Below, one piece after another: positions 40,923 to 55,818 of a stretch of 64,000 nucleotides of DNA. The stretch covers positions 151,714,001 to 151,778,000 of the forward strand of contig OX597814.1 of assembly GCA_951406725.2 (NCBI GenBank), read 5' to 3'. The notes beneath the pieces were generated by a model. That model saw nothing but the letters and a program-made list of their open reading frames with translations, was not told the DNA's origin and did no database searches. The stretch comes from Octopus vulgaris. Its lineage: Eukaryota. The position numbers and the translations under genes are program-made. Each line of letters begins with the position of its first letter. Within the stretch, counting starts at the first letter, position 1.

Positions 40923-40960
40923 AGAAATTTGAAAAGTTAAACACGAAACCGGTAATTTCT
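40923..40960 (+). ncRNA. Minimal hammerhead motif, U3:A8 variant
   Basis: Stem I AGAAAT/ATTTCT, core TTGAAAA, 2-bp stem II GT..AC, then GAAA-C-CG-GTA. Confidence 0.55.
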
Positions 40961-41457
40961 TCAAAAACTATGTCACTGTATGAAAAAAATTTATAACATT
41001 CTTCTGACATAATGACTCAAATATATATTTTTTAACCTTTTAAAACAAGCCTTCTGTAGTTTTTTTCACTTTTTACTATTTTCTCTCTCTCTCTCTCTCT
41101 CTCTCTCTCTCTCTCTCTCTCTCTCTCTCATATATACATATATATATACATATATATATATATATATATATATATATATATATATATATACACACATATA
41201 TATATATATACATCTAATATAGGATAAAAAATCTTTTCAAAACAAATTTCATCAAAGTGGCAACATATTAAAATACCATTAAAGGAGAAAATTATAAACA
41301 ATTTATAAGCAAGGGCAACAGAAAAAAAGATTTCTATGCCAAAATGCTGAGAATAGACTTTAAACCGTCAATCACATTACAATATACATTCACCATAAAT
41401 ACACGTCGTGCTGAAATCGAGAAAGTAAGCTAAAAGAGTCTTTTTTAAAATTCATTA

Positions 41458-41516
41458 TCTCTATATTGAATCAATTTCGGGATTAATCCCACGGATTTTT
41501 CCCACTTCAGTAGAGA
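41458..41516 (-). ncRNA. Hammerhead motif, A9U variant, inside a ~490-bp element next to a TA tract (41210-41700)
   Basis: Minus strand: stem I TCTCTA/TAGAGA, core CTGAAGT, stem II GGGA...TCCC, then GAA-ATTGA-T-TCAAT-A (AUA triplet). Confidence 0.65.
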
Positions 41517-42848
41517 ATGCGATAAGAAATAAATGAAATACTTACAAGCACCCATGGGAAAAAGCAGAAGCAAGAGTCATGTGTACACATAAGTACCCCA
41601 GTTATATCTAAATGTTAAATTCTTTAGCAAGCGTCACGAACCACAACTTTTAGTGGTTACCAGTCCCGAAGTCAATGGTAATAAATTTACTTTTAATATA
41701 GGATGTTACTCTTGGGTGGCATCTTTTATGTTTGTCGCCCTTGGATCTGTCTTTTGGGCGAACTGTTGTGGGGTCAATTTGTTTCTCTTATTTTGTTTTT
41801 GCTCTGGCTCTGGTATTCTTATACTTGTATGCTGAGGTAGTTCGTCATTGGGGCGTATTTTTTCTGAGTGGAGTTTGTGTGCTATGTGTGTTCAGATTTC
41901 ACGTTCAATAAAGAGGCTATCCTGTTAGAATCATTGTCACAGATAGTAACTCTTCTTTGAAGTATTTGAGTGTATAATATTGTTTGTGTATGCAGGGAGC
42001 GTAGGTTTTATCCCTAATGTTTAGGATGTTATCTAAGAAAATTTAAGCCCTAGTGTTCAGTTTTTCAGTAATACAGAGTTCATAAGTGGCACCCCGTCCT
42101 CTGTATTTTTTGGCTTTAGCAATAATTTTTCATTCTATCTGTGGGTTGTTTATCCCAACTTCTTTCAATGTCCATACCATATCTGAGAGGGATGTTGCAT
42201 GTTTTTTTTCATTTTTGTCTGAATAATGCCAGGTATTGTGTATACCTTTCCTTGAACGAGCTGTTCGTCATTCCGATATACGTTTTTGCAACTCCGTTGG
42301 GGTCCGTGATCATGGCCTTGTGTACGAGTTCTTTCTCGAGACTGAACTAAATGAGGCTGTGTTTTCCAAAATGGAGACGAACACCTTTCTCCGTGTGATC
42401 GGCTTGAAAAACTGTTAAGACGTCAGGATATTTTCCTACTTTTCTTAACATGAAACCAATGACAGCCTTAATTCACAAATAAATAAATTATATCCATCAA
42501 TTCAACGTTGGGCACTCATTATCATCGTTTGATATTTACGTATATATATATATATATATATATATAATATTATATATATATTTATATTATACACACACAC
42601 ACACACACACACACACACACACACACACACACACACACACACACACACACACACACACACACACATATAGAACCTCGGAGATTCCGTAGAGTCCAGACGA
42701 AAAGATATAAAAATACACTCATAGAGTCACGCATACACACATGGACACACACACACACACACACACATACACACACATCCGCGCGTGCACACACACACAC
42801 ACACACACGCATGCATGCACGCGCACACAAACTTATGCATATACATAC

Positions 42849-43111
42849 CTTCCCGGAAATAATACAATTGTGTAGCTGCTAATTCCCTTGACAACAAGTA
42901 GGATGACTGCTATCAATACTGATACGTCTGGGTTTTTGTATGAAAGGAGGATATCACTGTGCACATGAGATCCGAACGTCAATGATCCACAGATTCCCAA
43001 CAGCATGTAAAAGAACGTAGCGAAAGCAATAGCTACGCACAGGACCTTGGAATATGACCGCAAATTTCGATGCTTCATACTGTAGTAGATTGGAACAGAA
43101 CTCACTTGTGC
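42849..43111 (-). CDS. SLC38A7-like: SLC38A7-like copy B, exon (end of TM6 to TM8)
   Basis: 263 nt, same phases as copy A. AQVSSVPIYYSM...SSYTIVLFPGR. Confidence 0.9.
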
Positions 43112-53076: not shown

Positions 53077-53303
53077 GGCGGCGAGCTGGCAGAAGCGATA
53101 GCGCGCCGGGCGAAATGCTTAGCGGTATTTCGTCTGTCATTACGTTCTGAGTTCAAATTCCGCCGAGGTCGACTTTGCCTTTCATCCTTTCGGGGTTGAT
53201 AAATAAAGTACCAGTTTGGCATTGGGGTCGATGTAATCGACTTCGTCCCTTTGCTTGTTCCCTCTATGTTTAGCCCCTTGTGGGCAATAAAGAAATATAT
53301 ATA
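53077..53303 (+). mobile_element. Young full-length Nin-domain SINE with TSD
   Basis: TTAGAGGGCGA at 53066-53076 and 53304-53314. Absent at the paralogous site in copy C. Confidence 0.9.
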
Positions 53304-54643
53304 TTAGAGGGCGACAAAGATAACTTTTGACTATTTATTCGATGCGGAACATGGAGATTGCTATTCCAAAGATAATTCGTGTAGTTTTAGATACAGGTGT
53401 GAACAAATCATTCGATATGTTCGGATAGAAAGGGCGCGCAGTGAAACTAAATCCTCATTTTGATGAACAGCTGTCGGTAGGTACTATTCTGGGAAGTTGT
53501 GTACATTTTTAGAACAGTTCCCGACCACTTAGGAATAGCAATGGATCAGAGATAATGGGTCTCGTACCAACTCCATAACTTTTCGCAGTTGTTGGCAGTA
53601 GAGAAGCGATAACTGTATGTAAGAAACGGTTAGAGATGGGTAACATTGCGAGGGGCAAATATTCTGCTTTACATCGTCATCGCAATGGGCTTTATGGGTA
53701 CGTGTCACACACTTCGTAGACGTTTACCATGACGCTGAAAACTGGGAACATTCTCTGATACGTTGACTGACAAGGTGTGGTGTTACAGAGGAAGGACACA
53801 AGCAAAGGAAACATCGTGGACAGCATCTGATCCATAGCTCTGCTGCGTGTAGAATTTTGAGAGTTAGTGCAGGGCAGTGCTCGCGAAGAGACTGATGCTT
53901 GTCGTACTTGGTGTAGCTAGAAGCGCACAGACTTGTGCTATTTCCAGTAGATTTATTCACAACCACCTCCACCTCATGCCAGTCATCGTTGCGAAATTGG
54001 CTAAAATAAAACTTGCTCTAGTGGGGCTCAAATACCTTGGCATCAATTCAAAGCTTTCGGTAATACTTAGTGGCTCTTCTCAGTGTAGCTAGTTTCGACA
54101 TCATTTCAGAGGATGGATTTCATCAATCTATAGTAAAAACTGCTCTGTAGTCAGGATAAATGGCCACATGTGTGATCCATTAGGAATCATGCCCAATCAG
54201 CCAGAGAGTGAAGCACGTATAGGGGTTCCTGGATAGTGAACATCTGTTGTTACAGTTTGATAGGCACGTCTTTTCACAGTTGATCTCTTTCATTGAACTG
54301 CTGTCCCGGATCAAGTGAAGGTCAATATTGGGTATCTCCTTGCCTAGCATTGCCATTTCGGAATAAAGTCTAAAAGCTGCCGAAGCTGCATGAAATGTGC
54401 ACAGAACAAGGAAACAGTTCAATACACACTAGATCTATATCTCTGCGTTGTAAAATTATATTGAAAATTGTAAAGATCTAGTTATGTACCATATCGCAGC
54501 ACTAATGTTGTATTTTAAATTCCAGTTGTTATATTTCTAATAACCTGACAAGTTACAAAAAATTTGCTAAAACAATTATTTTGATTAACGAAAGGAAAAG
54601 AATTGAACAATGTTACTGAGCATATAAGAAGTGGAGAACTTAC

Positions 54644-54736
54644 GACGTCTTAACTGGACTAGAAGGTGAATGTGTTTGTGTATATTTCACAAACACCAAT
54701 AAGCTGACATACAGAAATGCTGCAGTACCGACAGTA
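54644..54736 (-). CDS. SLC38A7-like: SLC38A7-like copy B, exon (TM5)
   Basis: atag| ... TC|gtaagt, 93 nt. STVGTAAFLYVSLLVFVKYTQTHSPSSPVKTS. Confidence 0.85.
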
Positions 54737-55154
54737 CTATAATGAATTGAAAAAAATCATTTATTTGAAAGAAATTCAGTAAAGTATATTTTAATTGTAA
54801 ATTATGTAATCTGTTTCGATAAGTGTAATTATTTTGAACAGTGAAAAGTGTAAAGTTTCTAGATCTTTTCTTTAAGTGGGCACCAGAGGAAGATGTAATT
54901 GTAGCCTTGCTTGTAAATGAGGATAGAAGAAGGAAATACAATAAAGAAAAGCTGATAAGAATAAGGGGACAAATGTAGAGGCCTACATCCAAACCAACAA
55001 CACATTCGTCTTTCTTCATAATTTTGGTATTCTAACTGCGAATTAAATTCTCCGATCATCATTCCTAATATGTCTTTCTCTGGAAATATATATATATATA
55101 TATATATATATATATATATATATATATATATATTATATATATATATATATATAT

Positions 55155-55818
55155 ATTAATAGTTATCGCCATACTAATATGGCAGTCTTATAAATATAAG
55201 ACTAAAGCTGTCGCTGATTAGCTCCAAGAGGCCACCGCCTCAAGCTAGCTATTTGACACACGAACCTGCGTCCATTACAAACCTCCGAACAAGGGAGGTC
55301 AGCTGCTTCATCCTGCCAGTCAGACAACTACAGACATGTTTCAGGATTGTTGCCCCTTATGAATGCAGCGTAGTCAGACTTGCAGGTATCGCTACTGATC
55401 GTCCCAGTTCGAAGGCTTTATTCACCTAGTTTCAGTGGAATACATCCACTTGTTTTCAATATTAGAAATATTAAAATTACTAAGTCTCTCTAAAGGAGAT
55501 TACGGCAGCGTTACTGGAAATTAATAGTTATCGATATACTACGCTGCATTGATAAGGGGCAACAACCCTGAAACATGTCTGTAGCTGTCTGACTGACAGG
55601 ATGAAGCGGCTGACCTCCCTTGTTAGAAGGTTTGTAGTGGACGCAGGTTCGTGTGTCAAATAGCTAGCTTGAGGTGGTGGCCTCTTGGAGCTAATCAGCG
55701 ATAGCTTTAGTCTTATATTTATAAAACTGCCATATTAGTATGGCGATAACTATTAATTTCCAGTAACGCTGCCGTAATCTCCTTTAGAGAGACTTAGTAA
55801 TTTTAATATTTCTAATAT
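55155..55818. mobile_element. Fold-back dimer of a ~365-nt hammerhead element in (TA)n
   Basis: ATTAATAGTTATCG at 55155 and 55520 defines the unit. 55155-55373 is inverted at 55539-55757 and 55456-55535 is inverted at 55745-55818. Confidence 0.8.
55543..55585 (+). ncRNA. Hammerhead motif, U3:A8 variant
   Basis: Stem I GCTGCA/TGTAGC, core TTGATAA, stem II GGGG/CCCT, then GAAA-C-AT-GTC. The mirror copy 55327-55369 (-) has TTCATAA. Confidence 0.75.

Follow-up and report, generated by a model that had tools for sequence, protein, structure and literature searches.

Minimal hammerhead motifs with a U3:A8 core in the octopus genome and their probable origin in Penelope-like elements

In the core of the active hammerhead ribozyme, C3 pairs with G8 (PMC3884650), and the role of general acid probably falls to the 2'-OH of residue 8 (PMC6155905). 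Natural covariation of these two positions to U3 and A8 was first reported by Perreault et al. 2011, with activity in vitro (PMC3088659). The closest described systems are the minimal hammerheads of Penelope-like elements (PLEs), in which the U3-A8 pair was described by Cervera and De la Pena 2014 (PMC4209133). Their first descriptor missed the variant, of which about 1,300 examples were then found in Schistosoma mansoni, and both UUGAUAA and UUGAAAA are present in the alignment of their Fig. S3. The U3:A8 variant itself, in the same two core sequences as those described below, is thus already published for PLE hammerheads. Motifs with a palindromic stem III cleave slowly and as dimers (PMC4209133, PMC6765202). 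We found no report on octopus hammerheads in the open literature that we searched; octopus is mentioned once in PMC8557442.

The DNA analyzed here, called the window, is a stretch of 64,000 nucleotides from Octopus vulgaris (contig OX597814.1, positions 151,714,001 to 151,778,000). It is AT-rich, microsatellite-rich animal DNA (GC about 0.30-0.47) and holds an amino-acid-transporter exon (57611-58003, minus strand) whose matched part is 100% identical to a protein predicted for Octopus vulgaris. An earlier note on this DNA had claimed three U3:A8 cores in otherwise unrelated elements, each with a stem II, GAAAC and GTH. We consider it highly probable that the three sites are minimal type I hammerheads from the pseudo-LTRs (pLTRs) of three different PLE families, in which a U-A pair between positions 3 and 8 was a family state copied by retrotransposition.

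Anatomy of the three motifs

The three sites are as follows.

40918..40966, plus strand: site 1, minimal type I hammerhead motif with the U3:A8 core TTGAAAA at 40929-40935
44989..45031, plus strand: site 2, minimal hammerhead motif with the U3:A8 core TTGATAA at 44992-44998
55543..55585, plus strand: site 3, minimal hammerhead motif with the U3:A8 core TTGATAA at 55549-55555

The cores lie exactly where the earlier note had placed them (40929, 44992 and 55549) and have the claimed surroundings, with stems whose quality varies by site. After each core come GAAAC, a 2-nt palindromic loop and then GTA, GTT or GTC, and all three sites have the type I pattern (N3-UGA-N-N8-A, GAAA, A15.1-U16.1 and an NUH cut site). 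Site 1 combines a stem II of 2 bp with a stem I of 11 Watson-Crick pairs interrupted by one bulged base, and it has a palindromic stem III and a predicted cut after 40954. At site 2, stem II has 5 bp, stem I in the catalytic register consists of only three contiguous A-U pairs, and the cut is predicted after 45028; when the core was held open, the best fold left stem I next to the core unclosed. Site 3 has a stem I of 6 bp, a stem II of 4 bp and a predicted cut after 55579. The opening stem II pair G10.1-C11.1 is G-C at sites 1 and 2 and G-U at site 3, a pair that also occurs in published rows (PMC4209133, Fig. S3). No extra base follows A9 before stem II at any of the three sites. Positions 3 and 8 are U and A, and hence Watson-Crick-compatible, at 3/3 sites, which suggests that they form the tertiary pair.

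Stem III is a 6-nt palindrome at all three sites, with self-duplex energies of -8.3 and -4.6 kcal/mol. As monomers, sites 1-3 preferred a fold that buries the core, by 2.5, 4.7 and 2.2 kcal/mol, respectively; the same penalty was 0.3-2.0 kcal/mol for three C3:G8 motifs of the window. Fold z-scores (-0.18, -2.63 and -1.20) were dropped as evidence, since best folds are not active folds.

The pattern TTGAWAA-N5-30-GAAAC-NN-GTH had three matches in the window; 100 dinucleotide shuffles averaged 0.11, and no shuffle had as many as three. Rfam hammerhead models gave zero matches to sites 1, 2 and 3 at E values up to 10. On the whole window, no hammerhead was among the best 150 of 152 rows, the C3:G8 motifs included, so the Rfam miss reflects the minimal build of these motifs. 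Sites 1-3 are genuine minimal hammerhead motifs, with an anatomy far beyond chance.

Penelope-like elements and the site-3 repeat family

The window contains two large inverted duplications (33677-46156 versus 330-12957, and 52967-58977 versus 26119-33254). All three elements are absent from the paralogous segments of both, hence there are no second alleles. Site 1 starts about 20 nt beyond the end of paralog homology (near 40898). No PLE open reading frame (ORF) lies beside sites 1 and 3. Around site 2, two features on the same strand precede the motif.

43334..43930, plus strand: 5'-truncated end of a PLE ORF, with a CxxxxCxxC linker and a GIY-YIG endonuclease domain
44150..44500, plus strand: tandem repeats of 56 bp and 159 bp, in the non-coding DNA that separates the ORF from site 2

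The ORF matched the Pfam GIY-YIG model with an E value of 1.3e-06. Three protein relatives were found, and identity to two proteins that join a reverse transcriptase to GIY-YIG was 51-54%; the layout appears Neptune/Nematis-like. A search for relatives in metagenome contigs returned 51 pattern matches, 0 of them confirmed. From the GIY-YIG stop to site 2 there are 1,062 nt within one insert in a (TA)n tract, which in the paralog runs on without interruption, and the element lacks a second pLTR. The GIY-YIG ORF on the same strand links site 2 to a PLE. Insertion into (TA)n and inverted partial tandems are both described as PLE structure by Craig et al. 2021 (PMC8557442), and the layouts of sites 2 and 3 fit PLEs. 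A PLE origin is likely for site 3 as well, and for site 1 the motif alone points to one.

Site 3 belongs to a repeat unit with the following parts.

55157..55818, no strand assigned: non-coding repeat, about 370 nt long, of a very abundant family; it forms an inverted partial tandem with (TA)n tracts on both sides
55327..55369, minus strand: inverted second copy of the site-3 motif, with U3 and A8 retained and G5 lost in this copy alone
55417..55468, minus strand: second, different U3:A8 hammerhead-like motif, core TTGAAAA at 55459-55453

The minus-strand copy at 55363 was discarded as independent support; it belongs to the same insertion as site 3. At this locus, a single intact motif stands in an inverted partial tandem, and there are no head-to-tail units that each carry an intact hammerhead. 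We aligned Logan contigs from four runs, carrying four organism labels, to 55165-55620 at 80% likeness, a threshold that leaves out distant subfamilies. The runs yielded 1565, 2211, 1523 and 873 aligned contigs, and the site-3 family thus combines a high copy number (873-2211 contigs per run) with a conserved motif. Among the 40 of 65 differences displayed, none introduced C3 or G8 at 55549, 55554, 55363 or 55358, and the lowest top share among the displayed rows was about 13%, with which a minor C3 or G8 class is compatible. The G5 loss at 55361 is private to the minus-strand copy of the window, as G5 was intact in 99.4-100% of contig depth in the four runs. At position 55582, a G-U pair of stem I becomes G-C in 61-82% of the depth.

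The second motif had been overlooked in the earlier note. Its core lies 96 nt upstream of a site-3-type core, and it has a 6-bp stem II and GAAAC. The cut triplet (55423) is GUG in the window copy, whereas GUA accounts for about 100% of the depth in each of the four runs, and positions 3 and 8 did not vary among the 40 of 65 differences displayed. Contigs linking this motif with the site-3-type motif occurred in two runs, and contigs linking it with the unit end occurred in all four. Its weak points are two bases too many ahead of stem II, an opening pair that is A-U and a doubtful stem I that needs an extra base; the fold penalty of the window copy is 5.7 kcal/mol. Summed contig depth drops 6-8-fold across 55420 and mixed loose ends cluster at 55463, which hints weakly at copies ending along a tail of 40 nt that reaches the cut site of this motif. 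The drop and the loose ends could also have arisen from divergence of the window copy. By analogy with the Anolis element (PMC11167929), the second motif may instead be only the tail stem-loop at which reverse transcription starts. A more far-reaching proposal takes two statements together. In the first, the site-3 family would be a non-autonomous octopus element, abundant and about 370 nt long, with two different U3:A8 hammerheads at a distance of 96 nt, of which the upstream one would coincide with the optional 30-40-nt tail and mark copy ends. In the second, U3:A8, present in 3 of about 9 hammerhead-bearing elements of the window, would be no rare exception in octopus PLEs but a major core state that evolved repeatedly. 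We regard this combination as tentative and rather doubtful.

Positions 3 and 8: decay, selection and origin

A stem-aware descriptor that required stems I and II and left positions 3 and 8 free had nine matches in the window, three U3:A8 and six C3:G8, with zero mixed cores.

440, 2776, 20500, 21034, 21568, 45374 (minus): C3:G8 matches of the descriptor

Order-3 Markov windows, 150 in number, averaged 0.127 matches of any kind and 0.02 for U3:A8, figures that are somewhat generous as the descriptor thresholds were fixed with the three sites already known. Stem II and loop II together span 9-20 nt in the three U3:A8 sites versus 49-65 nt in the six C3:G8 matches; one short C3:G8 motif is also present at 4670 on the minus strand.

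As a control for decay, a metagenome scan for the same architecture gave at least 103 loci, with 107 matches among those listed. Its pattern demanded GG...CC in stem II, and it is no census of U3:A8. Among the matches listed, 45 had stems I and II of at least 3 bp, and these comprised 41 C3:G8, 3 U3:G8, 1 C3:A8 and 0 U3:A8 motifs; the 62 matches set aside from the same list include two U3:A8 strings with a stem I of at most 1 bp. GUU cut sites and 2-bp stems II also occur in the control class, among the matches listed. Double against single changes were 3/0 in the window and 0/4 among the control matches listed (Fisher p 0.029, small numbers). In these small numbers, decay yields single mutants and the window shows doubles.

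These data bear on the reading that the sites are C3:G8 hammerheads altered by AT-biased decay, or chance look-alikes in AT-rich DNA. The low GC content of the window (about 0.30-0.47) would suit it, as would the nature of both changes, which are transitions (C-to-T and G-to-A), the fold z-score of -0.18 at site 1 and the restriction of family-level data to site 3. It is at its most plausible for site 2, with its weak stem I, and for site 1, with its 2-bp stem II. Against decay stand the lack of single-change cores in the nine window matches, the control motifs that decay as singles among the matches listed, and the retention of U3 and A8 in the site-3 family. Chance would have to account for a class expected at 0.02 matches per window and for the 11-bp stem I of site 1. 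We judge this reading very improbable. A family consensus of CTGANGA, which would have made the sites mere decayed copies, does not hold for the site-3 family, where no C3 or G8 was seen among the displayed differences. U3:A8 is a family state in the site-3 family and not decay, and it presumably is one at sites 1 and 2. The earlier note had asked whether U3 and A8 are fixed together: both are kept in the site-3 family, and joint fixation lies beyond contigs, which carry no per-copy linkage between positions 3 and 8.

We propose the following course for the pLTR hammerheads of the three families. The source families would be autonomous PLEs or non-autonomous repeats derived from them. In a tandem transcript, two motifs would pair via the 6-nt palindromic stem III, and U3 would pair with A8, leaving the 2'-OH of residue 8 in place as the general acid; from the known role of this group, A8 should preserve it. 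The RNA would then cut slowly after GUH, and in the ancestral elements such dimer cleavage may have processed tandem transcripts. The present copies would mostly be solitary, truncated relics and are probably inert, and the U3:A8 pair would have been kept through selection that acted on their active ancestors.

In the Anolis PLE, single mutants at position 3 or 8 abolish cleavage and the double mutant gives partial rescue, and insertion in vitro proceeds without hammerhead cleavage (PMC11167929). Together these results make selection for the pair likely, whatever its purpose. The earlier note had gone further, to selection for catalysis. The exclusively paired states at positions 3 and 8 in 9/9 window matches agree with that claim, and the cleavage-free insertion of the Anolis element counts against it; the 3-8 pair was probably selected. 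It may also be that the motifs were fixed in their families through few master elements, with cleavage negligible or irrelevant to spread, an account that we hold to be unlikely. It would be in keeping with the very low in vitro activity of metazoan minimal hammerheads (PMC4209133), with the dispensability of cleavage in the Anolis PLE, for which no RNA-seq ends were seen at the cut (PMC11167929), and with monomer folds that bury the core at all three sites. It leaves unexplained why only paired 3/8 states occur across unrelated families and why the site-3 family has stem-improving variants.

The elements are otherwise unrelated at the sequence level, as the earlier note had claimed: pairwise flank scores of the three sites were 21, 17 and 22, all inside the shuffle range. 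Its further claim of independent double changes does not follow, since unalignable flanks are compatible with one inherited core; pLTR flanks evolve fast and may become unalignable around it. There is close to an even chance that the three families inherited U3:A8 from an ancestral PLE lineage in which it had arisen a single time or rarely, a reading that is compatible with our preferred explanation and disputes only the word independent. TTGAWAA, GAAAC and a palindromic loop of 2 nt recur at all three sites, stem II and loop II are short in each, and both cores also occur in Schistosoma (PMC4209133). Against a single origin stand the unalignable flanks themselves and the short C3:G8 motif at 4670. 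In addition, one S. mansoni U3:A8 motif and one S. japonicum C3:G8 motif are near-identical in stem II and loop (PMC4209133, Fig. S3), which suggests switches within lineages.

Comparison with known systems

These motifs add a cephalopod to the hosts of a published core variant; they involve no new chemistry and no new kind of element. Counts of PLE ribozymes come out too low when they rely on CUGANGA strings or on Rfam models; that a CUGANGA descriptor misses U3:A8 motifs, as the earlier note had expected, is true by construction and also in print (PMC4209133), and here 3/9 descriptor matches would drop out. The occurrence of C3:G8 and U3:A8 motifs side by side in one window provides natural material on selection for PLE hammerhead cleavage.

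The octopus sites resemble the minimal hammerheads of the S. mansoni Cercyon PLE (PMC4209133) in being type I with a palindromic stem III and a U3-A8 core, in having no evident loop-loop contact, in occurring mostly as solitary copies and in their PLE link. They differ from them in the absence of an extra base between A9 and stem II, in a 2-nt loop III, in the presence of several U3:A8 families within 15 kb, and in their cephalopod host; the three mollusc rows of Fig. S3 in PMC4209133 are all C3:G8. With the motifs of Perreault et al. (PMC3088659), among which 2-bp stems II and weak stems III are common, they share the same compensatory pair. That survey covered all domains and its motifs are mostly self-sufficient, whereas the octopus motifs need a stem III partner. 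Finally, the site-3 unit, which is short and non-coding and holds a type I hammerhead, is like the non-LTR retrozymes of animals, which derive from PLE pLTRs (Li, Clavereau and Pollet 2026 preprint). In contrast to those retrozymes, the site-3 copy is arranged as an inverted partial tandem instead of head to tail, and two different hammerhead-like motifs seem to share the unit.

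C3:G8 hammerheads in the window

Hammerheads with C and G at core positions 3 and 8 (C3:G8) were found in a tandem array, at four further places listed here, and in the inverted repeat after site 2 described below:
20336-21807 (+), head-to-tail array of three 534-bp units, ~99% identical
440 (+), C3:G8 motif
2776 (+), C3:G8 motif
4670 (-), C3:G8 motif
56350 (+), C3:G8 motif, with an inverted copy near 55950

Each 534-bp unit carries a C3:G8 hammerhead with a long stem II and a palindromic stem III (20500, 21034 and 21568, all +), and the array lies upstream of a Penelope-like element (PLE) ORF fragment at 22279-23509. 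This array is young and retrozyme-like. The elements bearing the other four motifs are unrelated; at 56350 U4 is changed to A, in that copy and in the inverted one alike. Together with sites 1-3, the U3:A8 minimal motifs, about nine hammerhead-bearing elements were counted in the 64-kb window.

Repeats flanking site 2

Two repeats flank site 2:
44150-44500 (+), tandem array of 56-bp units downstream of the GIY-YIG ORF (a 5'-truncated PLE ORF end)
45210-45655, near-perfect inverted repeat directly after site 2

Every 56-bp unit contains ATTGG and TGACGT, which resemble CCAAT-box and CRE motifs, and the units may form an internal promoter array of the PLE pseudo-LTR. In each arm of the inverted repeat lies a C3:G8 hammerhead whose stem II domain spans 65 nt; the motif at 45374 (-) is intact and that at 45470 (+) reads GGAAC.

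Duplications and other mobile-element remains

An SLC38-type amino-acid-transporter gene cluster is surrounded by two large inverted segmental duplications, and each arm of one holds a tRNA-like match scoring above the Rfam gathering score:
330-12957 / 33677-46156, inverted duplication, arms ~85-95% identical
26119-33254 / 52967-58977, inverted duplication, arms ~78-85% identical
6707-6778 (-), tRNA-like match
39278-39349 (+), tRNA-like match

Other mobile elements have left these remains:
15828-17026 (-), GC-rich PLE with GIY-YIG
18852-19472 (-), Tc1-type transposase
50854-52492 (-), non-LTR RT with zf-RVT
59769-63692 (-), gag-pol LTR retrotransposon

Metagenome comparison loci

When P0001 and P0002 were used as tblastn queries against the flanking sequence available for the metagenome loci from the control scan (L001-L103), no match was obtained among the loci listed. 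Most of the matches listed are C3:G8 minimal hammerheads, and the 45 well-formed motifs among all the listed matches (stems I and II of at least 3 bp) fall into about 11 motif groups. The palindromic stem III of most listed matches is identical to that of sites 2 and 3.
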